Below are positions 1 through 38,312 of a stretch of DNA of 64,000 nucleotides, one piece after another. Within the stretch, counting starts at the first letter, position 1; the number at the start of each line of letters is the position of its first letter. This DNA is from Mycoavidus cysteinexigens (lineage in GTDB: Bacteria; Pseudomonadota; Gammaproteobacteria; Burkholderiales; Burkholderiaceae), in the NCBI GenBank assembly GCA_031963415.1, contig JASSUI010000002.1:29478-93477 (forward strand), in the 5' to 3' direction. The translations under genes and the position numbers were made by a program. Below the pieces are notes generated by a model. The model was not told the origin of the DNA. It saw only the letters and a list, made by a program, of their open reading frames with translations, and did no database searches.

Positions 1-1109
1 TACATGATAAAAATTGGGAAGTCAGGCATGGGGCCATGAACGCGTTAGGTAACCAGCGCATACTACCCGCTGAAGCGGTCTTGACCTTGCTTTCCATCTT
101 GAGGGGTGGGGATGAGGATCTCAGTTCAGGGGCTATGCGTGCCTTAGGTCATCAAAGCGTATTGCCGCCCGAAGCGGTTGTGGCTGTACTCTCAGCACTA
201 AAAGACGAACGGTGGGCGGTCAGATTTGAGGCAGAAGATGCTTTACGCGGTCATCGTGAGCTATCTTCTGATGCGATTTTGGCGCTACTTTCTGCTTTAG
301 AGGATGAGGATAAGAATCTCAGGTTAAATGCCATAAATGCCTTATGCCGTCAAACTACGCTGCCCTCAGAAGCGATTTCGGTTTTGAGTTCTGCTTTGAA
401 AGATAAAGATTGGGAGCTCAGATATGAGGTTGTATCTGCGTTGGGCAACCGGACCAAGTTGCCGTCAGAAGTCGTCTTGGCCCTAAGCTCTGCTTTGGAA
501 AATGAAGAGTGGATAGTCCACAGGTATTCGGTCGTGCGGGCTTTAGGCTGCCAGAGTAAACTGCCTTCCGAAGCGATTTTAGCTTTGCTTGCTGCGTTGA
601 AGGATGAGAGTAAGGATGTCAGGTCTGAGGCCCTGAACGTCTTAGGCAACCAGAGCACGCTACCCTCCGAAGCATTGTTGGCCTTGAGTGTTGCCTTGAA
701 AGATAAAGAGTGGGCAGTCAAGTATGCAGCCGTGAATGCCTTAGGTTATCAGAGCGCGCTACCTCCTGAAGTAATTTTGGCTTTGCTTTCTGCCTTAGAG
801 GATGAGGGCATCAGAGCTGCTGCCTCGAGGGTCTTACACTTAAATCTGAGCCGGCTTTTTACTTTGTTTCCGCGTGTAAAACGAAGTCAAGTAAAAAGGC
901 TCTACACCGAGGTTTTACTCCCGTGTAGTGTCGAGCAGACCACCCCCCTTTATATTCAAAACAATCAACTTCACTTTTATACGGCAATGGGGCCAGGGCA
1001 ACCGATTAAGTTGAATGCTAATCAAAGTAAAGAAATTATTGAGGCTTTCAGATCTGTCCAAGCGAAAGCTGGCATAACTTCAGGGTTAAAGAAGAGAGAA
1101 TTCTGGTAG
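1..1109 (+). CDS. HEAT-repeat protein, 3' part of an NLR-like (NACHT-HEAT family) gene; 5' end off-window
   Basis: The frame is open from nt 3 (DKNWEVRHGAMNALGNQ precedes the first Met at 36). It contains ~31-aa HEAT/E-Z-type repeats (ALLSALEDEDKNLRLNAINALCRQ). The last ~90 aa (LFTLFP..PLYIQNNQLHFYTAMGPGQPI..) match the C-termini of 9324..13856 and 14117..14389. Confidence 0.75.
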   Translation, partial: HDKNWEVRHGAMNALGNQRILPAEAVLTLLSILRGGDEDLSSGAMRALGHQSVLPPEAVVAVLSALKDERWAVRFEAEDALRGHRELSSDAILALLSALEDEDKNLRLNAINALCRQTTLPSEAISVLSSALKDKDWELRYEVVSALGNRTKLPSEVVLALSSALENEEWIVHRYSVVRALGCQSKLPSEAILALLAALKDESKDVRSEALNVLGNQSTLPSEALLALSVALKDKEWAVKYAAVNALGYQSALPPEVILALLSALEDEGIRAAASRVLHLNLSRLFTLFPRVKRSQVKRLYTEVLLPCSVEQTTPLYIQNNQLHFYTAMGPGQPIKLNANQSKEIIEAFRSVQAKAGITSGLKKREFW

Positions 1110-1134
1110 AAGGATTATCACTGGTCGCACAACA

Positions 1135-3637: not shown

Positions 3638-3783
3638 ACCACGATCCCCAGGGTTGTAGCTTGATTGAGCGGCAGCGATACTTCGCTTCAATTTAACGAT
3701 CAACGGAGTAAGCGTAAAGAGGGAAGTCAGATATTGGCCAGGCCCATGTAGCCATAGCGAGGCTGGCCAAGGATAAATGTGAG

Positions 3784-5454: not shown

Positions 5455-5529
5455 GTCAACAGCGATTTAAAATTGATACAGTTTTTCAGTGATCAGCGAT
5501 TTAAAACTGATACACCCCTGTACCTATAC

Positions 5530-7451
<1,922 letters not shown>

Positions 7452-7521
7452 TTTTCAATCGCTGAGGTGTATCAGTTTATATCCGCTGATGACAAAGCAT
7501 GCCGCATTCTATCTATCTCAT

Positions 7522-8237: not shown

Positions 8238-8500
8238 GTATGAATAGCGATTCTTTAAGTGGATAGGCTGGGGATCGTGGCGTGCTTACCCTCAATCTCT
8301 TAATCGATTTTATGTAAGGGTACTTAATAGAAAAGAAAACCAAAGACAACGCTCGGCGATTGCTCTCCCTTGTTCAGGGTTGTCTTTTTTGGACATAATT
8401 TTACATAAGGTAATTGATGATTTTAGGAGATAGCAAAAAATAGATGCAATTAGAAATTTTTAGCGAAATTACAATACATTTATTCGATTTTTGCTAATTT

Positions 8501-9323: not shown

Positions 9324-12300
9324 TTGTTTAATTTCATAGCCGGAACACGTCCGTTTTCGTCCGCCTCATCTTCACAGCATCAGTCCTTATCTTCACAGCA
9401 TCTGCTAGCCCAGGCACAAGCCTATCAAGCAATGGGCGATCTAGAAGAGGCCCAAAAATGGTATCTCGAAGCAATAAAGAAGGCCAAAGCTGAACATGAA
9501 AAAAATTCTATTGATCTGCAAGCCAAACAAAATTTTGATGCGATACGTAATAAGTACCACGCTTTTTTACACGAACTTTCGTTAAGAGAACATCAAGGGC
9601 AAAGTACGGTAGCTCCTTTTCGGAGACAAAGTCATACCTCATCTTCTCAAAATCCATCGCTTCTTCTCACCGGAAGTGATGTAGAGCCATCTGTGCCCAG
9701 TGTTGCGCAAAGTGAGCAAATCGATCATTTATTTGAAAAGGCGCTCTTCACGTTTGAGCGTTTAGAGGTATTGAATAAAGTTAGCTTGTTCCTAGTCTAT
9801 GCGCACGATAATTCTACTTACGGACAAGCTAAGGCCCATATTGCTAAATATTTAATTAAGAAATTATCTGACGTCCGCGTCAATCTGTATTCTGACCAAA
9901 CGCCAATGGGGCAGCCAGCAGCTTACTCAGAAGGATCGGGAAGCGTTCAGCAATTAGAAGATATTTTAACCAACCAGCTTTGCTTACTGCCCACTCAGTT
10001 AATAGATAAGGTAGCACCCGTCGATAAGGTAGTCGTCTGTTGCTCTGAAGTGTTGGGCAACTATCTAAAATCGCCAGATTATAAAAAATTCCATGAGGAA
10101 CTTCGAGTTGCCTACTTCAAAGATCAAAGAACCTATTGCACGGATGGCGCACAAGCCAATGCGTTGGCTATTCGTGAAGTGGTGAGGAAATTTTCACAAG
10201 AACCTGAATATAAAGCGAATTTCCATCATGTCTTAACGGAAACCGCCTTTTTGCAAATACGGGAAGAGCATCTCAAAGACCGACATGGCATTATCTCAGT
10301 ACAGTTAACGCCTAAAAGCCATGATTCTTGCCTCGCCCACTTTATTTCAGGGACCGCGGTTCGGATAGGCGATATTCTTCGATTTGAGGAGCAAGCAGAA
10401 GCAGGGCAAGAGGTGTATCCGAATCAAGGCGTGCACCTTGTGTTGTTTAAGCTCATCGAGCGGCTATTGGGAGAAAATCGGGAAACAAAACTGTTCTTGG
10501 ACAAGTTTTGGGAAGGATATAACGATTTAATTGTGAAGCTAAAGAATGAGCAGTCAACGTTGGCATGGTCTGAGTTTGTTAAACTGTTAGATCGTATTTT
10601 TGACGAAATATGGATGAGGCAACTCAGAGAGCAAGCGCAACATCTCTCCCAAATGCGCCTGCAACACAAAGAGGTCATACAAAAATTACTCCCGCCCACG
10701 CTCTCCTCAGGCGATTTGCGTGAAGCACTCTATCAACATTACCAGCGCTCGAGTCTTTCTATTCAGCGGGTATCCGGTGAAATAGCATCGCTTGACAATT
10801 GCTATATCAATCTGGCGATTGTGGAGAGTCAGGCGCAACGTGAAAAAGATAAAGAAGAGCTGGAAAAACTAAGAACCGCTTTTGAACGTTTGCCCAGCAG
10901 TGAGCGCATTGAAGCGACGAATCCTAATAAGTTAATACCGCTAGAAAGACTTTTTGAAACGCAAAAGTTACGTGATGGTTCAGAAGATAGACCCAAACGG
11001 ATTTTGATTCACGGAAGGGCAGGGATAGGCAAAACGACACTGTGCAAAAAGTTAGTGCATGAATACTACCGCAACGGCTTATGGCGAGATATTTTTGACA
11101 ATATCCTGTGGGTGCCTTTACGACAACTTAAGACGGTTTCGGTCCGCAGTCTAGAAGACTTACTATGCCAGCGGTATTTTTCGAATCATAGCAATAATAA
11201 AGCCCAAGCTTTAGGGAAAGCTTTTCTTGACTGTCAAGACAAGACTTTATTTATTCTGGACGGTTTGGATGAAGTCACAGAAATGTTCAGTGAAAGTCAT
11301 CCTTTAAATTATTTCTTAAAGCATCTCCTGAGTCAGCCTCATATGTTGATCACATCCCGTCCGGCAGGCGTCAATGCCTCTCAATGCAACAAGCTGGATT
11401 TGGAGTTGGAGACAATCGGATTTAACTCAGAAAATGTACGAACTTATATTCAAAAATTTGTGCCTGCGTCAAATCAGGCAGAGATTCAACAATTCATTGA
11501 TCGTATGCCGATGATTCAAGGGCTGGTCAATATCCCGATTCAACTCGATGCATTATGTTATAGCTGGGACAAATTACCGCGAGGTCAGGCAGTGAGCATA
11601 TCGATGTTGTACGAGGCGATGGTCGACAAACTATGGCGTAAAGACGCCATACGCTCAGAAAAACAAGACAAAGGCAAATCTTTAAATGATAGCGTGATCC
11701 AGAGTGCTTCAAAAGCTAAGCTAGAAAAATTGATGGGGGATGAAATCGATTATCTAGGCTATTTAGCTTTTAAAGGATTAGAGCAAGAGAAAATAGAATT
11801 TGATGTTGAGGCATTAGATCAACGCCAAGCAGAGATAGAAGACCGTTTTCCGGGCAAAGTATTATCTTTCAGCTTCACTCACGATCTGAAAAAGACCTCT
11901 TATTTACATACAGCCGATGCAGAGCGTCCCGAAGGTGAACGATACTATCATTTCCTGCATTTAACGTTTCAGGAGTTTTTTGCGGCAAAATTTTTAGTCA
12001 CACATCTCCAAGGGTCTACAGATGCAGCTAAGTCTACTGCTCAAGCTTACGGGGTGCAAAAGAGTTTAAGCCTTCTACCCAAGAGACAGGAGGTGGAAGC
12101 GTTTATTGCCACGCATAAATACAATCCGCGCTATGAGATTGTCTGGTGGATGGTGGCAGGCCTACTTGAAGGCATTTCACTAGAACATTTCTTTACGCTT
12201 CTGAGACAGCCTCCTCTTGACCTGATTGGTGTTCGCCATCAGCAAGTGTTGATGGGGTGTCTAAGAGAAGCCCGGGATCAATTGCCCCAGAAAACAAGCG

Positions 12301-13856
12301 ATGAGTTAGAAAAAGATCTCTTGACGTGGTTCGATCTTGAGATGAAATGGGAGAATGGCCATAGCCAATTGGGGTGTCAGAGCGCCTTTCCAGAGCATCT
12401 TCTGCTTAAGTTACTCTATCAGCATGATGACAGAAAGGAGTACATTATTAAAACATTAGGTGCTCGCTCTACACTGTCTGAGGATACCCTAAGCGTTTTA
12501 ATGGCCTATTTAAAGGATGAGAACAACAACATCAGAGCTGCAGTCACCGGGGCTTTAGGCCACCGGCACATATTACCAAGCAACGTATTTCAGGCCTTGA
12601 TCACTTCCTTAAAGGATAGAAATGCGAGCGTTAGAGCTGCAGCGACTAATGCTTTAGGTCGTCAGCCTACTCTGACAGATGTCATATCGGAGGCCCTAAT
12701 TGCCTCCTTGAAAGATGAAAACAAGGCAATTAGATTGGCCGCCACCTTGGCTTTAGGTAAGCATCCTGCGCTATCAGATACCGCGATTCTTGCCCTGATC
12801 GCCTCTTTAAAAGATGAAAGTGAGTTGGTTGGAGTTTCAGCAGCTCAGGTGCTGGGCAATCAACCTTTGCTGTTAGACACCATAATCGATGCTTTAATCG
12901 ATACCTTGAAGGATGGAAAAGAAGAAATTAGGATTTCGGCCGCTGTGGCTTTAGGCAGTCAGCCTGCCCTTTCAGTTACTGTACTTCAGGCCTTGACCGA
13001 TGCCTTGAGGAGTGAGGAAGAAGGGGTCAGAGTTTGGGCTGCCAAGACTTTAGGAAGCCAGCCTACCCTCTCAAACACCGCAATCCAGGCTTTGATCGCT
13101 TCTTTGCAAGATGAAAGTAAGAAGGTAAGGGTTTGTGCCGTCAAAGCCTTAGGTAACTGTCCTGCTCTGCCAGACATTGCTCTTCAGATCTTAACCGCTT
13201 TATTGAAAGATAGAGATGAGAGGATTAAGACGGCAGCCGCTACTGCCTTGGCTAACCAGCGTGGGCTATCAGATGCCATTCTTCAGGCCTTGATAATTTC
13301 CTTGAAGGATAAAAACGAAAAGGTTAGGTCTGCTGCAGCCACTGCCTTAGGTCGTCAACCTAAATTATTAGACACCAATCTTCAGGTTTTGATCACTTCT
13401 TTAAAGGATGAAAATGAGGAGGTTAGGGCTGCGGCAGCTACTGCCTTAGGTGCTCATCCAGCCTTACCAACCATGGCTCTCCAGGCTTTGATCATTTCCT
13501 TGACGGATAAAAATGAGAAAGTTAGAGTCGTAACAGCCGATGCTTTAGATTCCCATGTGAATCAGCTTTTTACTTTGCTTCCGTGTTTGGAGCAAAATCA
13601 AATAAAAATACTCTATTTTTTGGTTTTATTCTCGCATAGCTGCAAACAAATTTCGTCGCTTTATATTCAAGACCACCAACTTTACTTCTGTACAGCGGTA
13701 GGTCCTGGTCAATCTATCCCTCTCACTACTGAACAAATTGTGAAGATTGCAGAGGCTTTTAAAGCAGTTCAGCTAGGAACCGATGTTATTGCAGCATTAA
13801 GAATAAAACGTGACTTTCGTGTAGAAGCGTTACTAGCTGAGTTGCTGCACAGATAA
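9324..13856 (+). CDS. NLR-like STAND NTPase: TPR-like leader, SEFIR/TIR-like domain, NACHT, HEAT-repeat array and conserved C-terminal module (1510 aa)
   Basis: It uses a TTG start preceded by the RBS AGGAGGA. Walker A is GRAGIGKTT (11013..11039), Walker B is LFILDGLDEV, followed by LITSRP. About 12 HEAT repeats of 31 aa follow (ALIASLKDENKAIRLAATLALGK). The C-terminus (LFTLLP..SLYIQDHQLYFCTAVGPGQSI) is shared with two other loci. Confidence 0.85.
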   Translation: MFNFIAGTRPFSSASSSQHQSLSSQHLLAQAQAYQAMGDLEEAQKWYLEAIKKAKAEHEKNSIDLQAKQNFDAIRNKYHAFLHELSLREHQGQSTVAPFRRQSHTSSSQNPSLLLTGSDVEPSVPSVAQSEQIDHLFEKALFTFERLEVLNKVSLFLVYAHDNSTYGQAKAHIAKYLIKKLSDVRVNLYSDQTPMGQPAAYSEGSGSVQQLEDILTNQLCLLPTQLIDKVAPVDKVVVCCSEVLGNYLKSPDYKKFHEELRVAYFKDQRTYCTDGAQANALAIREVVRKFSQEPEYKANFHHVLTETAFLQIREEHLKDRHGIISVQLTPKSHDSCLAHFISGTAVRIGDILRFEEQAEAGQEVYPNQGVHLVLFKLIERLLGENRETKLFLDKFWEGYNDLIVKLKNEQSTLAWSEFVKLLDRIFDEIWMRQLREQAQHLSQMRLQHKEVIQKLLPPTLSSGDLREALYQHYQRSSLSIQRVSGEIASLDNCYINLAIVESQAQREKDKEELEKLRTAFERLPSSERIEATNPNKLIPLERLFETQKLRDGSEDRPKRILIHGRAGIGKTTLCKKLVHEYYRNGLWRDIFDNILWVPLRQLKTVSVRSLEDLLCQRYFSNHSNNKAQALGKAFLDCQDKTLFILDGLDEVTEMFSESHPLNYFLKHLLSQPHMLITSRPAGVNASQCNKLDLELETIGFNSENVRTYIQKFVPASNQAEIQQFIDRMPMIQGLVNIPIQLDALCYSWDKLPRGQAVSISMLYEAMVDKLWRKDAIRSEKQDKGKSLNDSVIQSASKAKLEKLMGDEIDYLGYLAFKGLEQEKIEFDVEALDQRQAEIEDRFPGKVLSFSFTHDLKKTSYLHTADAERPEGERYYHFLHLTFQEFFAAKFLVTHLQGSTDAAKSTAQAYGVQKSLSLLPKRQEVEAFIATHKYNPRYEIVWWMVAGLLEGISLEHFFTLLRQPPLDLIGVRHQQVLMGCLREARDQLPQKTSDELEKDLLTWFDLEMKWENGHSQLGCQSAFPEHLLLKLLYQHDDRKEYIIKTLGARSTLSEDTLSVLMAYLKDENNNIRAAVTGALGHRHILPSNVFQALITSLKDRNASVRAAATNALGRQPTLTDVISEALIASLKDENKAIRLAATLALGKHPALSDTAILALIASLKDESELVGVSAAQVLGNQPLLLDTIIDALIDTLKDGKEEIRISAAVALGSQPALSVTVLQALTDALRSEEEGVRVWAAKTLGSQPTLSNTAIQALIASLQDESKKVRVCAVKALGNCPALPDIALQILTALLKDRDERIKTAAATALANQRGLSDAILQALIISLKDKNEKVRSAAATALGRQPKLLDTNLQVLITSLKDENEEVRAAAATALGAHPALPTMALQALIISLTDKNEKVRVVTADALDSHVNQLFTLLPCLEQNQIKILYFLVLFSHSCKQISSLYIQDHQLYFCTAVGPGQSIPLTTEQIVKIAEAFKAVQLGTDVIAALRIKRDFRVEALLAELLHR

Positions 13857-14467
13857 TTTTAATTTTGCTTTTAGCAATACTTTTTTATCCCGCTAATTGG
13901 AAATATTTTCCTAATCTTTTTACTATTTTACATAAGGTAATTTATCGAACTTTTTTTGCAAATGATGGAAGATAGAGATAATTAGGTAATTTTGAATGCA
14001 ATTACACTATATTCATCTGTTGTGTCTTGCGTCATCAGCCTCCATCTAGTCATTTGCTTCAAATAACACCTACAACCAGTAGCAGTGCTCTATTTACCGT
14101 TTTCATCTTCCATTGTCTAAACGGTCAAACGGCTCACTAATGCCGATTTTTCCAGCAGCGAAGTTATTCCAGCTTCTACTTGAACCTCAACAAAAGCATT
14201 CGTAATCTTTTGACTCTGTTCAGGCGTGAGATCAATCGGTTGCCCAGGGCCTGTTGCCGTATAAAAGTGCAATTGACTGTCCTGGATATAGAGAGGGGCA
14301 ATCTGTTGCCGGTCTCGTTGAAGTAAAACGTGAGTATAGACAGCTTGGAGTTGACTCATGTCCAAATTTGCAAGACACGGATAAAGCATATGAGTATGGG
14401 AATTTAAAGTCTGCGCAATTTCAGAGCTGAGAAGCCTACTCCTAATACTATAACTATAGGAAATATT

Positions 14468-15809
14468 GAGCCTGTCAGATATTTTGTGTGTCCGAGGTCA
14501 CGGTTAACTATGACAGCTTCTTATAATGAAGCTGTAAAACGCTCGCCAAATAAAATGGCAAATTGAACTTTTGCAGTGCGCCATGTATTAGGTGGCATTG
14601 TCCAATTTTTAGTGATATTTCGCAAAGCCAAATAAATGAGTTTGATGGCGGCCTGGTCGTTAGGGAAGTGACCTCGATTTTTAATGACCTTCCGTATTTG
14701 CATATGGAGGCTTTCAATGGCATTGGTCGTATAAATAATTTTTCGCACTTCTAACGGGTAAGCAAAGAAAGGAATGACTTCTTGCCAATGGCGCCGCCAA
14801 ATTGAAGCAATCGGCGGATATTTCAGCCCCCATGGACTTTCGGCAAAGACCTCAAGCGCCACAGCGGCCTCGGTTTCGGTGGTGGCGCGATAAATATTTT
14901 TTAGTTCTGCCGCGACAGCCTTACGGTCTTTCCAGCTCACAAAATCCAGGCTATTGCGAATTAAATGCACGATACAGGTCTGGATTTGCGCTTGCGGAAA
15001 GGTCGCTGTAATGGCTTCTGGGAAGCCTTTGAGTCCATCGACGACGGCGATTAATACGTCAGACAGGCCTCGATTTTTAAGCTCTGTCATGACCCTCAGC
15101 CAGAATTTTGCCCCTTCGGTTTGTTCAATCCAAATACCCAGAATTTCCTTGGTACCGTCTGGTCGTACACCCAAAGCAAGATAGACCGCTTTGTTTTTAA
15201 CGCTGCCCTCATCTCGAATTTTGACTCGTAAGGCATCAAAAAACACCAACGGATACATCGGTTCTAGCGGGCGATTCTGCCATTCCTTGACTTCGTCCAT
15301 CACTTCGGCGGTGATCGTTGAGATCAGATCAGGCGAGACCTCTAAGCCATACAACTCGGTTAAATGCGCTTGAATCTCGCGCACCGGTAACCCTCGCGCG
15401 TAAAGCGAGATCACCTTATCGTCAAAGCCCGGTAGTCGCCGCTGATGCTTAGCGATGAATTGCGGCGTGAAACTGCCTTCTCGATCTCGCGGTATATCGA
15501 GTTCCAGCTTGTCTTCTGACGCTAAGACCGATTTCTTGCTGCTACCATTTTTATGATTACGCTTGATCTTGCCTACGCTACGTTCTTGCTCGAGATGATG
15601 CGCTAATTCACCCTGCAATATTCTTTCTGCTAGTGACTTTTTAAGCTGACCAAACAACCCGCTTTCTGTGAATATCGAGTGCGGATTTGACAGGTCTACT
15701 CCCTCTAAAAATTTATCTAATATCGCTTGGTCTATCTTTGTCATATGCTTACTTTTTGATTACCTTCATTATCATATGACTTCTTTCACACAAAATTCCT
15801 GACACCTTC
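14468..15809 (-). mobile_element. IS256-family element
   Basis: The element is 1342 bp long with imperfect terminal IRs (GAGCCTGTCAGATATTTTGTGTG / GAAGGTGTCAGGAATTTTGTGTG). An 8-bp direct repeat GAAATATT lies at 14460..14467 and 15810..15817. Confidence 0.9.
14521..15744 (-). CDS. IS256-family (mutator-type) transposase
   Basis: The 407-aa protein carries IS256 motifs (LYARGLPVREIQ, VFFDALRVKIRD, CIVHLIRNS, YTTNAIESLH). Confidence 0.9.
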   Translation of the reverse strand: MTKIDQAILDKFLEGVDLSNPHSIFTESGLFGQLKKSLAERILQGELAHHLEQERSVGKIKRNHKNGSSKKSVLASEDKLELDIPRDREGSFTPQFIAKHQRRLPGFDDKVISLYARGLPVREIQAHLTELYGLEVSPDLISTITAEVMDEVKEWQNRPLEPMYPLVFFDALRVKIRDEGSVKNKAVYLALGVRPDGTKEILGIWIEQTEGAKFWLRVMTELKNRGLSDVLIAVVDGLKGFPEAITATFPQAQIQTCIVHLIRNSLDFVSWKDRKAVAAELKNIYRATTETEAAVALEVFAESPWGLKYPPIASIWRRHWQEVIPFFAYPLEVRKIIYTTNAIESLHMQIRKVIKNRGHFPNDQAAIKLIYLALRNITKNWTMPPNTWRTAKVQFAILFGERFTASL

Positions 15810-15829
15810 GAAATATTCGCATTTGTATC

Positions 15830-20900: not shown

Positions 20901-21302
20901 TTCACACTTTTGTTGAACTGAACGAGCACCTGCTCAGCTTCTTCAAGTAGCACAGCGGCCTCAGTAGGCACGCTCTCTTTTCCTTGATGTGAGGCAAGGA
21001 TTTGTTTATAGCACCAAGCAAGATGACGGGTTTCCTGTAAATCTTTCGTATGCGTACAAGCGGGATAATTCAACGTAGGAATGGCAGAGCGAGAGAATTG
21101 CCCCTGCAGGGGTGCTTTGAAAAAGGGAGGTCCGGCCGATAAGCCAGCAATATACTGTGCAAAAATATTTGCCTTGCTCTCTGAGCATGGCCCATACATC
21201 GCTACATAATTAGGCTGTGTAGGGAGCGTTGCATGCTGTAGAGGAATAGGATTGCTGCCCAACGCAGAAAGTGCTTCTGTAGACTGACCTAACGCGCTTA
21301 AG

Positions 21303-22936
21303 TAGCTTGAATACTCAAGGACTACTTTCCTAAGAAACTTCCTCGTCTATGCTGCCTTAGGTTGCAATGTATAGCCTAATGATTCAGCCCGATGGGTTAA
21401 GTTAGCTAAAATTCTTTGTCGGTAACGCTCTTCATAGTATGCGGCGCCAGGATCAACATAGTTCATGCCATATCGCAATGCATTGTAGAACAGTACGGCA
21501 ATTTTCCGCGCCGTGGCGGTCACGGCTTTGGCTTTGCCAATACGCGCTGATAAGCGTCGATAGAATGCACCCAGTGCGGTCTCTGTTCGACCTATTGTGG
21601 TTGCCGCTAAACGCAGCGCTGCCGCTGCCTTATTTGAAGAGCGCCGCGTTTTAGAAGAGAGGACTTTGCCCCCTGATATTTTATTTCCTGGTGCTAAGCA
21701 TAGCCACGAGGTGAAATGCTTCACACTTGGCCAGCGCGACATATCGTTACCCCATTCAGCAACAAGCTTAAGAGCCAAAGAGGGGCCTAAACTATGTATC
21801 TGTGTGAGATCAATGCCGAGCACTTGATAGAGTGATGCTCTGACATCAAATGACATCTGATTAGATTGTTTACTTCGACACCGAGCTGTAGGCAAAGGGG
21901 TTGTCGCAGGTGGGTTATTGCGGTGCAACTTTTTTAAGGCAAGCTCAATCTGTTCATCACATTGCGCGATCTGCGTTTGATAAAAGTCGTACAAAGCCAC
22001 GGCTTGCGTCAACTCAAAAACATGCTCCGCTTGATAATGGCCTGTCAAAGCAGCACAAATATCTTCTTGAGATGCTTTACACCGAAAATCTCGATATTGA
22101 GCGAGTACCTCGGCGCAACGTTCACCGGCAATGATGGCGCGAATGATCTTCATGCCGGTGACGCCCGTTATGTCCGAGACCACAAGAGGCAACTGTACAT
22201 TCATTTGTACTAACGCTTTTTGCATATGCTGGATATGCGCTGCCGCATATTCAATTAAGCGCTCGCGCTGACGTAAATAAGCACGTAGCGTTGCCACATC
22301 ATGACGAGGTCGAAAGCTTGCGCTAAGTAATCCGTAAGCATGAAGTTTTTGCAGCCATTGAGCATCATTCACATCGGTCTTACGACCAGGTACCGTCTTG
22401 GCATGCCTGGCATTGACCAACACAACTTCAAAGCCTCGTGCTTCCAATATCTCAAATACAGCAATCCAATAAACGCCAGTAGACTCCATGGCAACCGTCG
22501 TTACACCCTTTTCCTTTAGCCACTGGGATAGGGCGTACAAATCGCCAGTGAAACTACGAAATGACCGAACTGGCTCTTCATCGCATTCAGGATCCACAGC
22601 CACAACGTGGAATGCTGAACCCACATCAATACCCGCAGCATGGGGATGAACGATTGAAATATCGGCGATGCTATGATGAATAGATCGAGGTTTTCTCTGC
22701 TTCATTGCCAAACCCTCCCAAAATGATGAATGATCGAAAGGCAGGATGACGGTGTCAATCACTTTCCTAAACGGGATCACTTCGCAGTGTCACCAATACG
22801 GGGGCCGCATCTATCCTTGGACCACGTTATATATCGGGGTAAACCACCAAAAAATAAACGGTCTCTCCAATCGACACAGATACTATAACTCCATCATAAG
22901 AGTTTCTCTGATTTGGGTAGGGGAGCGCCCCTTAAG
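21303..22936 (-). mobile_element. IS110-family element
   Basis: CTTAAG is present at both junctions (21297..21302 and 22931..22936), and there are no terminal inverted repeats. A 225-nt non-coding end lies upstream of the recombinase gene and 44 nt lie downstream. Precise removal restores the host reading frame. Confidence 0.8.
21347..22705 (-). CDS. IS110-family DEDD transposase/recombinase
   Basis: N-terminal motifs are GIDVGSAFHVVAV and MESTGVYW, and the C-terminal region is typical of IS110. I prefer the ATG at 22705 because the RBS GGGAGGG (22713..22719) lies 7 nt upstream. The ORF track extends the frame to 22780. Confidence 0.85.
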   Translation of the reverse strand: MKQRKPRSIHHSIADISIVHPHAAGIDVGSAFHVVAVDPECDEEPVRSFRSFTGDLYALSQWLKEKGVTTVAMESTGVYWIAVFEILEARGFEVVLVNARHAKTVPGRKTDVNDAQWLQKLHAYGLLSASFRPRHDVATLRAYLRQRERLIEYAAAHIQHMQKALVQMNVQLPLVVSDITGVTGMKIIRAIIAGERCAEVLAQYRDFRCKASQEDICAALTGHYQAEHVFELTQAVALYDFYQTQIAQCDEQIELALKKLHRNNPPATTPLPTARCRSKQSNQMSFDVRASLYQVLGIDLTQIHSLGPSLALKLVAEWGNDMSRWPSVKHFTSWLCLAPGNKISGGKVLSSKTRRSSNKAAAALRLAATTIGRTETALGAFYRRLSARIGKAKAVTATARKIAVLFYNALRYGMNYVDPGAAYYEERYRQRILANLTHRAESLGYTLQPKAA

Positions 22937-23460
22937 AGGTTATGTAGAAAAACCTTTCTTGCTTCATCGCGAGAGTATTGTTCTACATATACTTTCAACT
23001 CATTTATCAGCTGATCATAAGCCGCTTTGGCTTTGTCAGTCTGACCAGCAAGAACATAAGCTCTAGCTTCGGCTCGCCTAACTTCTGGTGGCACGACGAC
23101 TGACGAAGTTTGGACTGATCCGGACGGATGTGCGGGGGTTCCCCATACGCTGCTAAACACTTTCTGCTCCCAATGGTGAAGAGCGTAAGACTAAGCCTTT
23201 AGATTTTGCATAAGCAGATAGTTATTCTATGCCTACAGAATAAAAAAAAGTGGGATTTTTTACTCAACAGCATGAGGAGCAACCCTGATTTTTACCAAAT
23301 CTTTTATTTCCCCTAAGGCACAGCGCATAGTGGAGTTTCGTTAGACGTAGCGTAATTTATCGATTTTTCTTGAAATTTAATGAAATCTGAATTTTGGTTT
23401 GACAATCGTTATCAACCATACATTTTTATGCTGGACATTTTTTCTTAAAAATGGTAATTT

Positions 23461-24145: not shown

Positions 24146-24151
24146 GGCAAG

Positions 24152-25900: not shown

Positions 25901-26011
25901 AAAAAAAATACGCTGTCCGAAGTCACCGTGCAGGCTTTGATTGGCGCTTGTCAAGATGAAGAATGGAGTGTTAGGTCTGCGGTAGCCCGCGCGTTAGAGG
26001 GGCAGATTAAG
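25901..26011 (+). pseudogene. 35-aa relic of a HEAT-repeat (NLR-family) gene between IS1 and IS6
   Basis: It translates as TLSEVTVQALIGACQDEEWSVRSAVARALEGQIK, which is the HEAT-repeat pattern of the paralog family. It is cut on both sides by IS ends. Confidence 0.6.
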
Positions 26012-31611: not shown

Positions 31612-34600
31612 TTATGAAAAAAGGTTATAGCGCTTAAATAAATTGTAAGAACCTCCTTCCTTTAATTTAGGCTTAGGCACATTTATTCCACCACGCTGTT
31701 TGAGTAAACGCGCATTTCTCTCGCCTTTCTCTCCGATTAACCCTTGCACTTTCTCGCAATTCACGTCATCGAGTACGAGTGATGACACACCAATACTCCA
31801 GACAAGGCGGGCTTCTTCCCCTTTTTGTATTTTAGGGAGGTGCCATAAATTTATAGCATTAGTATCCTCATATGTCACCAGCGCATACCCTTCGCCATAT
31901 GCCGGTTGTTGCCAGACCACTGATCCAATCTTATGCCCCCCTCCTTTAATCACCATCAAGCGAGCACCGCTGTGGACATCCCACACTTGCACAGTTTGAT
32001 CATGACTTGCTGAGGCAATAAATTTTTCATCAGGGGAGAAGCGTACATCATTAATTGGCAAACCATGCCCCTTTAATATCCTTGGCTCCGTTATTGTGCT
32101 TATGTCCCATATACGTATTTTTCCATCACTTCCTCCTGAGACAACACGCCTACCATCGCTAGAAAAATCCACACCAAAAATCTCATAGTCTTCATCTTGC
32201 CTGGCTGAGATTGATATGGGCATACCTTTCTCCAGATCCCATATATATAGTTTCCTATTTTTGCCTACCGAGACAATACGTTTTCCATTTGCAGAAAATT
32301 TTGCACGATAGATATCATTGCCTTTTTCTTGTTTTGGTGAAATCCATATAAGCTTTTCTTTCACTCGATCCCATACACGTATCCTGCCATCTTCGCTTCC
32401 AGAAATAATGTGTCTGCTATCAGCGGAGAATTCTACGTCCCATATTGATACAGAGTTATGTTCATCATTTCTCCATTGCCACAGACGCTCACCGGTTAAG
32501 GTATTCCAGAGCATCAGCGTACCACCTGTATCTGCTGAAACCATGTGCTCCCCATCAGGAGAAAGACACATGCTAAGTACCAATGTATCGGGCAATAACT
32601 CATGTTTTGCAGTACGTTGAAGCTGTGCTGTCTTCGCATCCCAGATACATAACTTGCCATCCTCGTCAGCTGACACGACAATAGACGATCTAAAGGCGGC
32701 CCCTACAGTAAAAGGAACATAGCTATGCTTTTCAATAAGCCTTTGTGAAGGCCGACTTGTATCAACCTCCCAAAGTCTCACTTTATGGTCGGCTATCGAG
32801 GCAGCAAGCTGAGCATCCTGAGACAGAGCGGTAAAATTCATGTCAGCATAGTTTCTGAGTATGCTATCTAATAGATAACCGTTATGCGCATCCCATACCT
32901 TGGCTATCCCTAATTTATCGATAGAAACAATCAGATCATCATTGTCAATAAAGCTTATCCCATGAATAGGGTAAGTATGATCTTTCAAGATATGAATAGG
33001 CTTATCTTCATTAGTACTCAGTATCCACACTGTACCGTCGTAGTCCCCTGAAACAATGCGTTCTCCATCAGCAGAGATATCTAAACATTCCACTCCGTTG
33101 TTCGCGCCTTTCTTGGTAGAAAGTAGCTTGCCAGAATAAGCCTCCCAGATACACACAGTATTATCAAAACTTCCAGAAACAATATATTTTCCATCCGCCG
33201 AGAATTTTGCGCTGGTAGTATCGTCGGTATGGTTAACGAGTGTATGTATAAGCCTGTTCTCAGCAATATCCCAAACGCGCACGGTACAATCTTCACTACC
33301 AGAAACAATATATTTCTCATCCGGGGAAAAATTGATGCTGATAACTCTACCCTGATGTCCCTCGAACGTATCAGTTAATATCCCTTTTTCCAGATCCCAT
33401 ATACATACTTTTTTATCGCTTCCCCCCGAAATAAGACGCTTTTTATCGTAAGAGAAAGCAAAGGCTAAACTTCTCTCTACTTTGTCTTTCAACGTCAGAA
33501 TCTTTCGTCCAGTCGCAACCTGATAGATATCAATTGGCCCTTCTAATAATCCTGCCGCTAACAGAGTACTATCGTGAGAGTATTTTACTGCGCGCACTGC
33601 TTTCTCTTCTCCGATATTAGGCATTTCTCCAAAGTTGATATCAAGTAAATTAGCCTGGCTTAGATCGGCATTACGCAGCCAAACTTGACGGGCTATTACT
33701 CCCTCCAGATCCGCCTCTTTTAAAATGGCATGATCAAATTTTCCAGAACTAATATCTGCGCCAGGAATCTTTATCTTCGCTAAGTCTTCGCCATTAAAAT
33801 CTTTTCCGCTTTGTACAAGTATTGTCATCGTATTAGCGGCAGCTTGCTTTAATTCATTCGTTGCATCTGAGGCTTTAGACGCTTCAATCCACTCACGCAG
33901 ATATTTTGCAAAATTGTCATCTCTTTGCGTATATTCAATTAAGAACGCAAGAATAGCTGGCTCGTTAGTCAAAACAAATTGACTCAGCAAAGCTTGGCCC
34001 TGCTCTATCTGCTTCTTGAGCGGCAGGCTTTTAGACTGCGACCAAATAGCCCGTGCCACAAGATATTCTTGAAGTGATTTATGGACAAAGCGGTACTGTT
34101 GGCCTTGACGTATCAATGGGGCATTTAAAAATAATAAGCGCTTATGGGCATCGCCTTTAAGATAAGGCTCCCACTCTGCAGGCGTGACTAAACCCTCTTC
34201 ATGATGAACAGCTTGGGTTGTACGTGCTTTAGTCAATGACACGGCCATTTCTTGAATAGCGCGAAGAATTCCCGCTTCGAGATTTTTTCCTAATTTATTT
34301 AGCGCTTCCTTCTCTTCAGAGGACAAATTAATATGCTGTAAACGCTCTTGCGCACGCTCCAACCAACATTCGATAAATTTATCGAAAAGTGTGGTTTGTT
34401 TAATATCGGTAATGCCTTCTTGCCCTTTTAAACTTGGTAACACTTCTAAAGCCATCCGCAATAAAAAGGGGCGGCGTATCACTTCTTTTAATGAGGGGAA
34501 CTTGTCTAACGTTGTCAGATAGCGCGTAGTATTCCAGCCTTGGGCTGCACTGTTAGTAGACTCAACATATTTTTCTATATAGTTTTTAATCCAGTTATCA

Positions 34601-37059
34601 GAAATGGGCGCAAGCCAATACTCTTGCACTGTATTTTTTTGATCTCTTGCTTGAAATTGACTGTGATACCTAGGCCCCAAGTACTCTCTACGTGAGCTGA
34701 TAATCAATTTTGATTTTTTCCACAAGGGCAGTTGATTCTTTGTGCTAAACGCTTGGTTACGATCTTCGATTTCGTCAAAACCATCTAAGATAAAAATAAA
34801 TTTCTGGTTTTTACGCAATACCTCAATATCTGTCTCACTGAAACCATGCTTTTGCAAATATTGAGCAATCAAATCTCCATCAAAAGAGGGGCATTCTGCT
34901 AAGCGGATAAACAGCGGAATAGGTTTAGATTTATCTCGACCATAAGCTTTCCACGAAGCGATGGCGAGATGGCGCATAAATGTGGATTTGCCTGAGCCTG
35001 CTTCGCCTAGCAGCAGCAAAACTTTTTTATCAGATTGAAAGAATTCACGCACTTTAGCCAGTAAATCAAAACGCTCTGTTGTGAAGGCACTAGCTTGCGC
35101 TTCTGGGGCAACGTAATGCTTTAACGCATCTTTAATTCCATCTATTTTTAAGCTATCGCGATAATCATTGCGTAATGCTTGAATACCTTCACGGATGGAG
35201 CCAAGCGATTGCTCGTTTGTTTTAACTGCTTTGGTGTTAAGTTGATTAATTTTCTCGCTTAATCTCGCCACTTCTGCTTCAAGCCCTTGCAACTGTACAT
35301 TGCCCTGTTTCACTCTCCGAGTAGTTTGTGCAAAACTCGACTGAATAGATTGTGCTAATTTGGCCTGGGTTAATTTAATGTCTTCCATTTGCGCAGGAAG
35401 CGCTTCAATATTGTTATGCCTTTCCTTTTTCTTCAAAGCAGCAGTCAATAATGTTCTAGCAGGAGCAGTTAGCCAATATGCATGCCAAGCTGGGGGCGCT
35501 TCATCGCTAGGCATCGACTCGGGATTGAAGTTTTGCCATTTTTCAATACGATTAAGCACAGTTTGCGCGTACGCTTTGACTTTTTCGTGATTACCCCAAG
35601 TTGGTTTACCTTTTTGCAAAGCATCAAGGAAACTAATTGCATTCTCCTGGGCGGGTAGCTTGTCGGTCGCATAGGCTATACGCTCAAGGCGATCACATAA
35701 GCCGCGTAGGAAATATTTGTGATACGGCTCTTTACCTTGCTTAGGCGTATTATCAATGATAAATTTCTCGATTAAATCCAGGCGACCCGTGGCTAATGCC
35801 ACGCCTATTACGCCATCTAGTTCACGCAATTGGATGTACCACGATTGTGTTCTACCAGCTGAAGCAATCTGCTTATATTCTTGCCAAAAAGACTGTAACG
35901 CATTCAAAAACAGATCCGGCTTAAAGCCTGCGCTCATGATGGCTAACGGGGTGCTTCCAGGGTGAGTGATGCCTGCCGCAACAAATTTTAAGATCCCGCC
36001 CGCTAAATACAATCCTCCTGCAACAGTCGGGCTCATATGGCGCGTGACTTTATCAAAAAAGGATTCATCGTTAGGGATATGGGCGAGCGCCTGCCTCGCA
36101 TATTTGATAGGCCAGGCAAATTCAGGATGATTTTCAAATCGTTCGAATACTTGTAAAAACCTTTCTTGAATCTGAATTCGTGCTAATCCCTTAACGCCAG
36201 TCGTCACCATTTGATCGAGCAGTAGATTTAGCGTGCGTAGCAAAGCTTGTACTTGCAACGAATTTTGGTCATCAATATGAATGGTTTCTAAAAGTTCAAG
36301 CAATGTCTGAAGCACTCGCACATGATCTCCAGCACGCTGCTCATCTTTGGTTAAATGTGGACGACTAAGCAACAATACCGATAATGCCTCCAATAATTTG
36401 ACATCCAATAAGCTGCTTTTATCGAGCTTCAACGCCTCGAGCATGGCATTCGTGAGAGTACGATGTAATGCCAGATCATCGATCTCTCTTAGTGCTAAAT
36501 ACTCATGAATAACGGAAAGCCCCTTTGAGGATTTGCTAAATTGTTCATTTATTTGCTCTATTTTTTTGAGTAATGCCTGTAGTACCTGATCAGTTAACGC
36601 TGATGAGCAGTTTTCTTGTTTGAAATGCCAGGCAAGATGACGTGTTTCCAGTAGATCTTCAGGTTTTGTTACGGTGGCGTAATTCAGCTGAGGATTAACG
36701 GATATCTGTTCAGAGGTAAAAAAAGAAGGGGTAAAGGATGGCGATTGGCTGAATTGAGCGCGCAAAGTAATCAGTTGATTGGCCTGTTCCATAAAGCCAA
36801 GCGCTTTTGATTCTTCATTGGTTTGGAATAAAACATTGGCGTATCCAAGATAGGCATCAATAAGTGCCTCTTCTATACATTGAGCTTGCGCTATTTTTAT
36901 ACATTGTTGGTATTTATCCGCCGCTTCCCAAAATTTTTGGTTTTTCTCATCTTTTCGGGCCGCTTCTAAAAGATCTTGCGCAGACTTGGCTGCTAGCAAG
37001 GGTTGATGCACGCGACTATCTGACGAATTCGTAGCGCTAACTCTCACTAAGCTAGACAT
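31612..37059 (-). CDS. NLR-like STAND NTPase: helical N-domain, coiled coil, NACHT, pentapeptide repeats and a WD40 array
   Basis: I prefer the ATG at 37059 because the RBS AGGAGGA (37064..37070) precedes it. Walker A is GEAGSGKST (34981..35007), Walker B is FIFILDGFDEI, followed by IISSRREY. Pentapeptide repeats follow (ADISSGKFDHAILKEADLEGVIARQVWLRNADLSQANL). More than 14 WD40 blades follow (VCIWDLEKG, VRVWDIAENR, IRIWDIST). Confidence 0.85.
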   Translation of the reverse strand: MSSLVRVSATNSSDSRVHQPLLAAKSAQDLLEAARKDEKNQKFWEAADKYQQCIKIAQAQCIEEALIDAYLGYANVLFQTNEESKALGFMEQANQLITLRAQFSQSPSFTPSFFTSEQISVNPQLNYATVTKPEDLLETRHLAWHFKQENCSSALTDQVLQALLKKIEQINEQFSKSSKGLSVIHEYLALREIDDLALHRTLTNAMLEALKLDKSSLLDVKLLEALSVLLLSRPHLTKDEQRAGDHVRVLQTLLELLETIHIDDQNSLQVQALLRTLNLLLDQMVTTGVKGLARIQIQERFLQVFERFENHPEFAWPIKYARQALAHIPNDESFFDKVTRHMSPTVAGGLYLAGGILKFVAAGITHPGSTPLAIMSAGFKPDLFLNALQSFWQEYKQIASAGRTQSWYIQLRELDGVIGVALATGRLDLIEKFIIDNTPKQGKEPYHKYFLRGLCDRLERIAYATDKLPAQENAISFLDALQKGKPTWGNHEKVKAYAQTVLNRIEKWQNFNPESMPSDEAPPAWHAYWLTAPARTLLTAALKKKERHNNIEALPAQMEDIKLTQAKLAQSIQSSFAQTTRRVKQGNVQLQGLEAEVARLSEKINQLNTKAVKTNEQSLGSIREGIQALRNDYRDSLKIDGIKDALKHYVAPEAQASAFTTERFDLLAKVREFFQSDKKVLLLLGEAGSGKSTFMRHLAIASWKAYGRDKSKPIPLFIRLAECPSFDGDLIAQYLQKHGFSETDIEVLRKNQKFIFILDGFDEIEDRNQAFSTKNQLPLWKKSKLIISSRREYLGPRYHSQFQARDQKNTVQEYWLAPISDNWIKNYIEKYVESTNSAAQGWNTTRYLTTLDKFPSLKEVIRRPFLLRMALEVLPSLKGQEGITDIKQTTLFDKFIECWLERAQERLQHINLSSEEKEALNKLGKNLEAGILRAIQEMAVSLTKARTTQAVHHEEGLVTPAEWEPYLKGDAHKRLLFLNAPLIRQGQQYRFVHKSLQEYLVARAIWSQSKSLPLKKQIEQGQALLSQFVLTNEPAILAFLIEYTQRDDNFAKYLREWIEASKASDATNELKQAAANTMTILVQSGKDFNGEDLAKIKIPGADISSGKFDHAILKEADLEGVIARQVWLRNADLSQANLLDINFGEMPNIGEEKAVRAVKYSHDSTLLAAGLLEGPIDIYQVATGRKILTLKDKVERSLAFAFSYDKKRLISGGSDKKVCIWDLEKGILTDTFEGHQGRVISINFSPDEKYIVSGSEDCTVRVWDIAENRLIHTLVNHTDDTTSAKFSADGKYIVSGSFDNTVCIWEAYSGKLLSTKKGANNGVECLDISADGERIVSGDYDGTVWILSTNEDKPIHILKDHTYPIHGISFIDNDDLIVSIDKLGIAKVWDAHNGYLLDSILRNYADMNFTALSQDAQLAASIADHKVRLWEVDTSRPSQRLIEKHSYVPFTVGAAFRSSIVVSADEDGKLCIWDAKTAQLQRTAKHELLPDTLVLSMCLSPDGEHMVSADTGGTLMLWNTLTGERLWQWRNDEHNSVSIWDVEFSADSRHIISGSEDGRIRVWDRVKEKLIWISPKQEKGNDIYRAKFSANGKRIVSVGKNRKLYIWDLEKGMPISISARQDEDYEIFGVDFSSDGRRVVSGGSDGKIRIWDISTITEPRILKGHGLPINDVRFSPDEKFIASASHDQTVQVWDVHSGARLMVIKGGGHKIGSVVWQQPAYGEGYALVTYEDTNAINLWHLPKIQKGEEARLVWSIGVSSLVLDDVNCEKVQGLIGEKGERNARLLKQRGGINVPKPKLKEGGSYNLFKRYNLFS

Positions 37060-38312
37060 TTTTCCTCCTATTTGTCTCATTTTTTATAGTGCAGCAGATG
37101 ATTGCTTGCAAAAGATTTCTCTGAATCTTGAAAGGATAGAAGTTTAGCTTGGCTTGTATGGTTTTACTCAGATTTTTACAAGTGAGCTTGAGAGAATCAG
37201 TTTGCTTTACTTAAAAGGATAGGCTTCAGAAGCCAAAAGGAGAGTTTGCCGTTACACAACAAAATAGAGGGAGAGGCCGGCTGGCTAGGTGACACCTATC
37301 TCGCTAGACTTGTCAATATAAAAAATTACTTAATAAATTAAGACAACTAATACATTACACCAAACCAGTTATTTAATTTTATTTATTTAAATAAAAATAT
37401 TTATTTTTTAACCAATTAAAATCAACTATCGCGCCATCCTTTTTGCTGTATTTTTTATTTTAACTTTACTCTGGCCTGCCACTTTCATTTTTCGATAATC
37501 CATATCATTTAAATTAATTACCTCATTTGCTTTAAATGGAATAGGCATTGGTTTTTTTATTTTATTGTTTATTTCATTTTTTCTAATAGCGCAAAACAAT
37601 TTACAAAAATTTTCTACCAATGCAACATCTATCATATCTGATATACGCATAACCTTCCTCCCCTACAACATTAAAACTGCTTGCCACCAGCATAAGCGGA
37701 CATCTATTTTTTGTTGTTATGGATAAGAAAAATTGTTTTGCAAAACGATATTTCCATAGATATGAATTAATTTATTCATCAACTCCAAATAAATTCTCAT
37801 TTTAATTAAGAATTTTAAGTGGTGATTCAAGATAGCGATATTTTTCAACCTATACTTCCTCTTAGAATTTCATAAGAAGCAAAAACGTTTCAAATGTTCG
37901 GCATATATAAACACTGCTCATGCAACGTAACAAAACGCTTTTCGATCGCCACCCTAATGATTTTAATTAATCAAATAAACGCTTCTTTAATAAATTCACA
38001 TATTTTATTTAAATATTTAACTTTTAAAAAAATATTAAAAATTTAGAAACAAAATTAATTTATAGAGCATGCAACATATAATTGAATGATAAATTTTACA
38101 GAGATAAATACATCGAAAATAAGATTTCTTTAATTTCAACCCAAAACAAACTTGACTAATAATTTATGAAATCGCCAAAAAATAAACAATCAACAAACAT
38201 TTTGTTTTTTAAATTGCCGCACTTCTTTTAATAACGGAGGAATTCGCTATCAGTGTGCTTACTGATAGCGGACTTAGATAAGCTGTAGGTAAAAAATCTG
38301 GAATCGACCGCT

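Follow-up and report, generated by a model that had tools for sequence, protein, structure and literature searches.

Putative NLR-type NACHT genes with exchanged N-terminal modules cluster in the genome of Mycoavidus cysteinexigens

Receptors of the NOD-like receptor (NLR) type play central roles in the immunity of animals, plants and fungi, and their bacterial origin, possibly via intracellular symbionts, is an active question. A 64,000-nucleotide stretch of DNA from the endohyphal bacterium Mycoavidus cysteinexigens, a relative of Burkholderia that lives as an endosymbiont in Mortierellaceae (GenBank assembly GCA_031963415.1, contig JASSUI010000002.1, positions 29,478 to 93,477, hereafter called the window) contains a cluster of very large genes with a NACHT domain and C-terminal repeats, and thus raises the question of what these genes are, how they diversified and which function they may have. 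The locus presents the bacterial side of the documented sharing of NLRs between bacteria and fungi in a compact and readable form. The members of the cluster are designated a to e in their order along the window (Table 1). Genes b, c and e are predicted from their sequences to be signal transduction ATPases with numerous domains (STAND) of the NACHT type, to have NLR architecture and to belong to a single family in which N-terminal modules were exchanged between paralogs. With a probability of roughly 55%, we consider the cluster to encode single-chain NLR-type NACHT receptors, in which a repeat sensor, a NACHT switch and a proximity-activated N-terminal domain (N-domain) would cooperate in non-self recognition.

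The initial annotation, made from the letters of the window, had assigned five loci within 37 kb to one family, and all five were found by mapping of open reading frames (ORFs) and translation. Three of them are full-length NACHT genes, of which b and e are intact and c is split by insertion sequence (IS) elements of the IS110 and IS256 types; the other two are a 3′ fragment (a) and a single-repeat HEAT relic of 37 aa (d), which shares 65% identity with a HEAT unit in the related locus L003. A 397-aa fragment with an alpha/beta N-domain (P0012), 53% identical to gene b, lies on the source contig outside the window, so the cluster has at least one more member. The Pfam NACHT profile (PF05729, cut-off 26.7 bits) matched b, c and e with 78.7, 85.2 and 51.2 bits, respectively. 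As the initial annotation had noticed, the P-loop, the Walker B box and the following TSR or SSR segment are legible in the translation of each full copy: the Walker A motifs GRAGIGKTT, GRPGSGKST and GEAGSGKST are intact, as are the Walker B motifs LFILDGLDEV in b and c and IFILDGFDEI in e. The Walker B signature of NACHT proteins is hhhhD[GAS]hDE (Kibby et al. preprint), and by both profile score and the combination of this signature with Walker A (GxxxxGK[ST]) all three proteins fall into the NACHT clade of STAND NTPases. According to the order of Pfam domains, each polypeptide unites a non-NTPase N-terminal domain, a central nucleotide-binding oligomerisation domain and C-terminal repeats; HEAT families were detected in a, b, c and d, and e is indeed the gene with pentapeptide and WD40 repeats. 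That ORFs as long as 4.5 kb and 5.5 kb have stayed uninterrupted amid an IS-saturated region argues that b and e are maintained.

Similarity between the paralogs extends well beyond the NTPase core. In BLASTP comparisons, the identity between b and c is 44% along 999 aa that start at the SIQRVSGE linker, include NACHT and the helical domains and reach into the HEAT array. For c and e it is 34% along 705 aa (44–45% in the core of the ARM_5 N-domain alone), and the similarity of b and e is confined to the NACHT domain (24%, E 5e-5). Fragment a matches the HEAT array and the C-terminal module (C-module) of b with 34% identity and those of c with 37.5%. The similarity of the N-terminal caps (N-caps) of b and c appears weak but real, with a Smith-Waterman score of 60 compared to 26.4 ± 4.7 in shuffled sequences and none of 2000 shuffles reaching 60. 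A sliding profile of 50 aa along gene c was b-like in aa 1–100, e-like in aa 150–550 and again b-like in aa 600–1200. Between aa 150 and 550, c is 42–58% identical to e and 10–26% to b in a forced alignment, b having a different domain there; between aa 600 and 1200, the identity is 40–64% to b and 10–30% to e. Gene c therefore reads as a clean chimera, with an N-cap and a linker-to-HEAT part like those of b and a helical N-domain like that of e. These relations bear out three kinds of module sharing proposed in the initial annotation, namely of the first approximately 85 aa between b and the broken gene, of a helical domain of approximately 450 aa between the broken HEAT gene and the WD40 gene, and of linker, HEAT array and C-module between the two HEAT genes. 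Nucleotide similarity between the paralogs is limited to short patches with 65–79% identity, indicating that the copies are old and not recent duplicates.

Scanning one genome for each species of bacteria and archaea yielded 40 related loci, all in assemblies labelled Mycoavidus cysteinexigens and 36–61% identical to b. The number of NACHT genes in them is 67, with a maximum of 22 per assembly, and two or three are found in 21 of the 40 loci; dozens of the copies are full-length and occur across at least seven Mycoavidus assemblies. We know of no comparable expansion (at least 20 copies) among described defence genes. Module mapping in the 40 loci resolved two N-domains, an alpha/beta domain termed 'TIR-like' and the helical ARM_5 domain, and two fixed chassis, NACHT with HEAT array and C-module (b-type) or NACHT with pentapeptide repeats and WD40 (e-type). 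The alpha/beta N-domain is combined with b-type NACHT, HEAT and C-module in 31 genes, with b-type NACHT but no detected C-module in 15 more genes, several of which run off the end of a contig, and with e-type NACHT and WD40 in 10 genes. ARM_5 occurs with b-type NACHT, HEAT and C-module in four genes and with e-type NACHT and WD40 in three. Neither a b-type NACHT with WD40 nor an e-type NACHT with HEAT or C-module was found in these loci, indicating that modules are shuffled only where the N-domain meets the pre-NACHT linker. The mix-and-match of N-terminal, sensor and C-terminal modules that had been noted from the window thus holds for the N-terminal parts, which are swapped, whereas the sensor and the C-module stay with their NACHT type.

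The repeats themselves vary in a characteristic manner. Gene c encodes 20 HEAT-like units of 35 aa, which Tandem Repeats Finder reported with a period of 105 bp, 18.7 copies and 79% matches; the composition of this unit, rather than foreign DNA, accounts for the rise in GC content to 54.5% (GC skew –0.25) at positions 16001–18000 over a background of approximately 44%. Among 18 HEAT repeats of gene c that are in register, the ratio of nonsynonymous to synonymous substitution rates (dN/dS) was 1.37 overall, and variation peaked at columns 16, 17, 21, 24, 27 and 28, for which, as columns selected by entropy, dN/dS was 2.3. In the related locus L019 (positions 4275–5778), a WD40 array consists of approximately 12 units of 126 bp with 85% DNA identity, which vary only at positions 6, 7 and 9 (after GH), 25 and 27 (GSxDx), 40 and 41. 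dN/dS was 2.0 at these seven positions and 0.42 elsewhere, and the framework positions of this array are under purifying selection. Near-identical repeats with few hypervariable positions are a hallmark of fungal NLRs of the HNWD type. The WD40 repeats of gene e are diverged and not near-identical. A stand-alone WD40 protein of 432 aa without NACHT domain, encoded further along the window, is weakly similar to the propellers of gene e. Behind the HEAT array, a, b, c and most of the b-type genes in the Mycoavidus loci encode the C-module, which is approximately 90 aa long and carries the motif LYIQDxQLHFYTAxGPGQPI; when a, b and c are aligned, 30 of its columns are invariant. The C-module had no Pfam match, and a word-indexed homolog search returned matches in Mycoavidus only. 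An AlphaFold2 model of the C-module was poor, with a mean predicted local distance difference test score (pLDDT) of 57, and its Foldseek matches are consequently without meaning. Domain content, intact catalytic motifs, chimeric structure, family expansion and repeat hypervariability are direct observations on these genes.

The IS256-type element in gene c has imperfect inverted repeats of 28 nt, encodes a Mutator-family transposase and is flanked by an 8-bp target duplication, GAAATATT, at 14460–14467 and 15810–15817. Removal of the element together with one copy of the duplication restores the reading frame, and with the duplication still clean the break looks recent. The frames flanking the IS110-type element end and resume with ..FLHNLLRG and ..GQSTEAL, compared to FLHELSLREHQGQST in gene b; no second copy of the IS110 or IS256 element was present in the window or the retrieved related loci, and therefore the ends of the IS110 element could only be bracketed. 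The repaired gene c encodes approximately 2021 aa; the initial annotation, which also described the gene as IS-broken, gave 2019 aa. It is improbable, in our view, that the family is evolutionary debris, acquired from the fungal host or left from an old expansion and now decaying without current function in a shrinking, IS-ridden genome: the ORFs of 1510 and 1822 aa are intact with all catalytic motifs, the IS256 break is recent and exactly reversible, full-length copies are numerous across Mycoavidus assemblies, and the framework of the L019 WD40 array is constrained, even though decay would fit the copy split by two IS elements, the 37-aa relic, the copy that reaches beyond the window edge, the many transposase genes in the region (IS256-, IS110-, IS1-, IS6-, IS3-, IS66-, IS21-, IS200- and Tn5-type) and the shortness of many database homologs, which are fragments.

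The two N-domains would represent the output modules. The helical N-domain of c and e, approximately 450 aa long, corresponds to Pfam ARM_5 (PF23948; E 4e-38 and 2e-40), with a score of 139 bits for e against a cut-off of 27. For the alpha/beta N-domain of b, 17 homologs were detectable, comprising Mycoavidus proteins, a record filed under Linnemannia gamsii on a short contig and a stand-alone protein of Rhizophagus diaphanus. The latter is intronless, 411 aa long and 40% identical, and is encoded on contig QKKE01000512.1 (L042, 8001–9236) with a GC content of 26.7%, between genes with ANAPC3/TPR and protein-kinase domains; the AT-rich contig and the eukaryotic neighbours indicate that it is a truly fungal copy of the alpha/beta module. 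An AlphaFold2 model of the b N-domain (pLDDT 79, predicted template modelling score 0.75) shows a beta-alpha-beta core with a parallel sheet followed by a long helical tail. Its order of strands (E) and helices (H), E37-41, H54-65, E70-73, H89-104, E118-123 ... E206-210, is compatible with the flavodoxin-like order bA-aA-bB-aB-bC. Near-invariant polar residues (Y42, H44, N46, S73, D74, Q101, C103, K118, S124, H185 and the Glu of HHxLTE) form a conserved constellation with the motifs YAHDN, SDQ, SQLC and HHxLTE, the Glu of the last being present in every homolog that covers the position, and suggest that the domain may be an enzyme.

The initial annotation had stated that the helical domain is replaced by a SEFIR/TIR-like domain in gene b. 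The N-domain of b is indeed a different one, but its assignment gained no support from four approaches: no TIR or SEFIR Pfam match appeared at E ≤ 10 in any of the 17 members, a PDB search with the family profile returned no match, Foldseek of the model against PDB found nothing below E 0.05 (best E 0.2, Rossmann-like enzymes), and hhalign against the TIR domains of MyD88, SARM1, TLR2 and RPS4, four reference sequences confirmed against PDB, gave a probability of 0.4%, the same as for a CheY control. Foldseek against BFVD gave only weak matches to N-deoxyribosyltransferases (E 0.5–3). Resemblance to TIR by HHpred and AlphaFold was reported for the homologous fungal cluster (PMC9815663), and because of this resemblance and the compatible strand order we regard a TIR/SEFIR identity as unconfirmed but not refuted.

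To find the relatives of gene e, its ARM_5-to-helical part was searched exhaustively with phmmer, which returned 3078 cluster representatives at E ≤ 1e-3, of which 507 reached E ≤ 1e-30; 78 of the best 150 representatives have the architecture of gene e. The best relatives are 77–39% identical and lie on contigs from 192 kb to 2.4–2.8 Mb, one of them named M. cysteinexigens. Named relatives are M. cysteinexigens BBE08980.1 and BBE09212.1 and a HEAT protein of 'Glomeribacter sp. 1016415'. Relatives filed under Mortierellaceae come from Modicella reniformis (35% identity) and from Mortierella alpina (31%, with ARM_5 and NACHT), and a record filed as Linnemannia gamsii is 46% identical but lies on a 4-kb contig, its fungal origin being unverified. 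Fungal contamination as the source of the genes in the window was rejected, since they lack introns and have bacterial IS elements, a Phd/PIN toxin-antitoxin pair and tra genes of the F type as neighbours.

Much of this family has been described from the fungal side. A helical N-domain of more than 500 aa ('NLR_Helical') occurs in NLRs of Pezizomycotina and Mortierellomycetes, with bacterial homologs 'mainly in Mycoavidus cysteinexigens', and we infer from the matching description and taxa that it is the Pfam ARM_5 domain; a second cluster of fungal NLR N-termini is a partly SEFIR-like 'TIR-like' domain that is also found as separate proteins in Rhizophagus and in Mycoavidus (PMC9815663). The homologs of the b N-domain, in Mycoavidus NACHT proteins and as a stand-alone protein in Rhizophagus, belong to the taxa named there, although the TIR/SEFIR assignment was not reproduced for b. 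NACHT-PPR-WD40 NOD-like receptors (PPR, pentapeptide repeat) are common to Mortierellomycota and Mycoavidus with 45–50% identity, and their role in symbiosis was left open (PMC11291939). Gene e matches this architecture exactly, with ARM_5, NACHT, pentapeptide and WD40 repeats, and is homologous to the Mycoavidus and Mortierellaceae members. Gene c differs in placing the same helical N-domain on the chassis of NACHT, HEAT and C-module; HEAT partners of this N-domain were reported from Ascomycota and not from Mucoromycota (PMC9815663), and the C-module, found in Mycoavidus only, is a further difference. Since both N-domains, the architecture with pentapeptide and WD40 repeats and their occurrence in Mycoavidus as well as Mortierellomycota are published, neither the family nor its inter-kingdom distribution is new, and the window is a good new example but not a new kind of system. 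The initial annotation could not assign the combination of modules to a described subtype; its pieces are covered by these two papers and the Kibby et al. preprint. In the searchable literature we found no paper that dissects the bacterial family itself, nor did we find there the strict two-by-two rule, near-identical hypervariable arrays of the fungal style in a bacterium, the lineage-restricted C-module and the conserved Ser-rich N-terminus.

The most likely function of these proteins is that of ligand-triggered, NTP-dependent oligomerising receptors with fast-evolving repeat sensors. For oligomerisation, output activity, trigger and biological role we draw on the analogy with antiphage NACHT proteins of bacteria and the fungal HET-E/NWD NLRs. 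The C-terminal repeats, either the HEAT array capped by the C-module or the pentapeptide repeats with two WD40 propellers, would sense the ligand, and the NACHT NTPase could act as a switch that exchanges or hydrolyses nucleotide and oligomerises on sensor engagement. The N-terminal domain, alpha/beta Rossmann-like or helical ARM_5, may then produce the output by induced proximity. Diversity arises in two ways, by swapping of N-domains at the pre-NACHT linker between the two fixed chassis of NACHT and sensor, and by rapid turnover of the repeat arrays with amino-acid variation at few positions per repeat. Such receptors might recognise phage, mobile elements, competing symbionts or host factors as non-self and respond with growth arrest or cell death. 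The Podospora proteins HET-E, HET-D and NWD (HNWD) are alike in their layout of NACHT and WD40, and the near-identical L019 array with its few hypervariable positions resembles theirs. The HetD/E-like NACHT clade 18 is described as containing homologs from bacterial endosymbionts of fungi and as distinct from the tested antiphage clades (Kibby et al. preprint), and the present genes may have their kin there. In contrast to HNWD, the present proteins lack a HET domain and are encoded by a bacterium, and the WD40 repeats of gene e are diverged.

An equivalence to a characterised antiphage STAND family, Avs1–5 or one of the tested bNACHT clades with phage proteins as ligands, is very improbable and already disfavoured. 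Bacterial NACHT proteins were experimentally shown to be antiphage in dependence on the Walker A lysine, and HEAT and beta-propeller sensors are catalogued among them (Kibby et al. preprint); the single-chain layout of effector, STAND NTPase and repeats and the NACHT signature motifs are common to both groups. However, the best match of the NTPase region in PADLOC-DB was PDC-S60, with E 3.9e-8 over 163 of 1027 profile positions, the NCBIfam model 'DS8_antiphage' reached 18–20 bits where its cut-off requires 790, neither N-domain is a known defence effector, and the preprint places homologs from endosymbionts of fungi in the HetD/E-like clade, apart from the tested ones. The size of the family, with at least 20 copies in genomes of 2.6–2.8 Mb as determined for two sequenced Mycoavidus strains (PMC5877345), is another difference from bNACHT and Avs proteins. 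Of the 'NACHT/Avs-type antiviral STAND' and NLR architecture proposed initially, the NLR/STAND layout stands, whereas no Avs or antiphage PADLOC model matched meaningfully.

The N-termini raise the further possibility that the proteins act outside the bacterial cell. The first 25–30 residues are conserved across paralogs as MFNFIAGVRPSSPAPSS..HL.ISSQHLL (b and the homologs in loci L002, L003, L004, L017, L022 and L037), the position of the TTG, GTG or ATG start codon is conserved in 13 homologs, and many have an in-frame stop three codons upstream. These N-termini contain 24–32% Ser and 0–1 acidic residues, compared to 9.4% Ser and a mean of 2.2 acidic residues in a crude background of 176 ORF N-termini. 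A Ser-rich, acid-poor N-terminus is typical of type III secretion system (T3SS) signals, and as a putative export signal it is a lead, not evidence; the Ser bias lies only in the top 2–7% of this small background. T3SS components were reported for Mycoavidus (PMC5877345), and the nearest relatives outside Mycoavidus are NLRs of the host's fungal lineage, as would be expected if NLR-like proteins were exported, e.g. by a T3SS, into the fungal cytoplasm to mimic, titrate or trigger the homologous NLR network of Mortierella and thereby control symbiont acceptance. We regard such a host-directed function as unlikely, because proteins of 1500–2000 aa with stably folded propellers and solenoids would have to be exported, no chaperone or T3SS gene is located nearby, and family expansion, hypervariable sensors and N-domain swapping suit receptors better than mimics. 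A broader version, in which NLR modules form a single inter-kingdom pool used by Mycoavidus and its Mortierella host, the bacterial copies are more than antiphage genes, act in or on the fungal cytoplasm with the Ser-rich N-terminus as export signal, engage the host NLR network and set symbiont compatibility, and the C-module and the two-by-two swapping are adaptations to this end, is speculative and in our opinion improbable.

Several findings weigh against the interpretation of the cluster as NLR-type receptors for non-self recognition. As recommended in the initial annotation, the three large proteins were scanned with defence models, but no PADLOC model rose above noise, the best matches being HEAT-ARM_XIII in the repeats and fragments restricted to the P-loop, and an NCBIfam scan yielded nothing specific. 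No activity of the alpha/beta domain emerged from Foldseek (PDB and BFVD), Pfam or hhalign, and ARM_5 is without known function. Some members are decaying, since the five copies in the window include two relics and one gene broken by IS elements. An endohyphal bacterium may meet few phages; in favour of the interpretation, however, prophage sequences are reported from Mycoavidus genomes (PMC5877345). With respect to the repeats, dN at the hypervariable columns is inflated by their selection by entropy, and the repeats of an array are not independent of each other. As gene c is a pseudogene, relaxed constraint could also explain an overall dN/dS near 1.

Table 1. Members of the NACHT gene cluster and neighbouring features in the window (positions within the 64,000-nucleotide stretch)
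Feature	Position	Strand	Description and evidence
Gene a	1..1109	+	3′ part of a NACHT-HEAT family gene, 5′ end beyond window; 33-aa HEAT repeats and C-module (~843-1103); Pfam HEAT_2 E 9.6e-29, C-module by tblastn
Gene b	9324..13856	+	intact, 1510 aa, TTG start; Pfam NACHT E 5.7e-22, HEAT_2 E 8.6e-38
b: N-cap	9324-9608	+
b: alpha/beta 'TIR-like' N-domain and helical tail	9699-10763	+	followed by linker SIQRVSGE..CYINLAIVES
b: NACHT	10998-11465	+
b: helical domains	~11604-12503	+
b: HEAT array	~12489-13538	+
b: C-module	13539-13853	+
Gene c	14117..23160	-	IS-broken; pieces below
c: 3′ piece	14117..14467	-	remnant of last HEAT unit and C-module (translation, C-module alignment)
c: IS256-type insertion	14468..15809	-	Transposase_mut E 2e-124, inverted repeats, frame restored on excision
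c: body	15818..21289	-	ARM_5 N-domain 20027-21037, linker, NACHT 18914-19378, helical domains, HEAT-like array ~15818-17900; ARM_5 E 4.2e-38, NACHT E 6e-24
c: IS110-type insertion between N-cap and body	21290..22926 (ends to within ~10 bp)	-	DEDD_Tnp_IS110 E 1.6e-22, Transposase_20 E 8e-12
c: N-cap	22927..23160	-	Ser/Pro-rich N-terminus and TPR-like hairpin
Relic d	25901..26011	+	one family-type HEAT unit between IS1 copy (25117-25901) and IS6-type transposase ORF; Pfam HEAT E 2.3e-4
Gene e	31612..37080	-	WD40 gene, intact, 1822 aa (1815 aa from second Met, 37059); TPR-like N-terminus; ARM_5 E 2.4e-40, WD40 E 2.1e-80, NACHT E 1.6e-13, Pentapeptide E 8e-5
e: ARM_5	35530-36657	-
e: NACHT	34561-35022	-	followed by helical domains
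e: pentapeptide repeats	33625-33798	-
e: two WD40 propellers	~31801-33621	-
IS66-type element, split	3638-8289		TnpB_IS66 ORF 7522-7920, 556-aa transposase 3784-5454; split by IS21-type element (IstA 6321-7451, IstB 5530-6324)
Toxin-antitoxin pair, type II	23491-24145		Phd/YefM antitoxin, then PIN-domain toxin
IS1-like element, two copies	25117-25901 and 42537-43321		785 bp each
DUF7673 protein	27552-27962		E 8e-29
478-aa ORF	28284-29720		no Pfam or NCBIfam match
626-aa protein	38313-40193		~3-4 tandem 97-aa units (291-bp period, 71% matches); no Pfam or NCBIfam match
743-aa ORF	40229-42460		no Pfam or NCBIfam match
Stand-alone WD40 protein	43390-44688		432 aa
328-aa ORF	45276-46262		weak Rpn-family recombination-promoting nuclease match, E 2.5e-4, below cut-off
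IS66-type element, unbroken	48126-50731
F-type conjugative transfer block	52786-63560		TraG_N and TraN confirmed by Pfam

Besides the NACHT genes, the window contains genes for conjugation and several large ORFs. In the F-type transfer block, TraH, TraF, TraU, TraW, TrbC and a signal-peptidase-like gene were named from reading of the sequence and from distant matches to Acinetobacter plasmids, and the window may be located on a plasmid or an integrative conjugative element. A search of a plasmid database with the DNA of the tra region, and with gene b by tblastn, returned only distant cyanobacterial and other NACHT/HEAT proteins and no close relative. Where proteins of the window occur in the protein collection, they do so as singletons, as does the 626-aa repeat protein; by exact-sequence look-up, the 478-aa protein forms a one-member cluster and the 743-aa protein is absent from the collection. 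The 743-aa and 478-aa products could be lineage-specific symbiosis proteins. The toxin-antitoxin pair is located just upstream of the start of gene c. The two copies of the IS1-like element are inverted and 100% identical, and the first directly abuts relic d. The unbroken copy of the IS66-type element is likewise inverted and is 99.2–99.7% identical to the split one.

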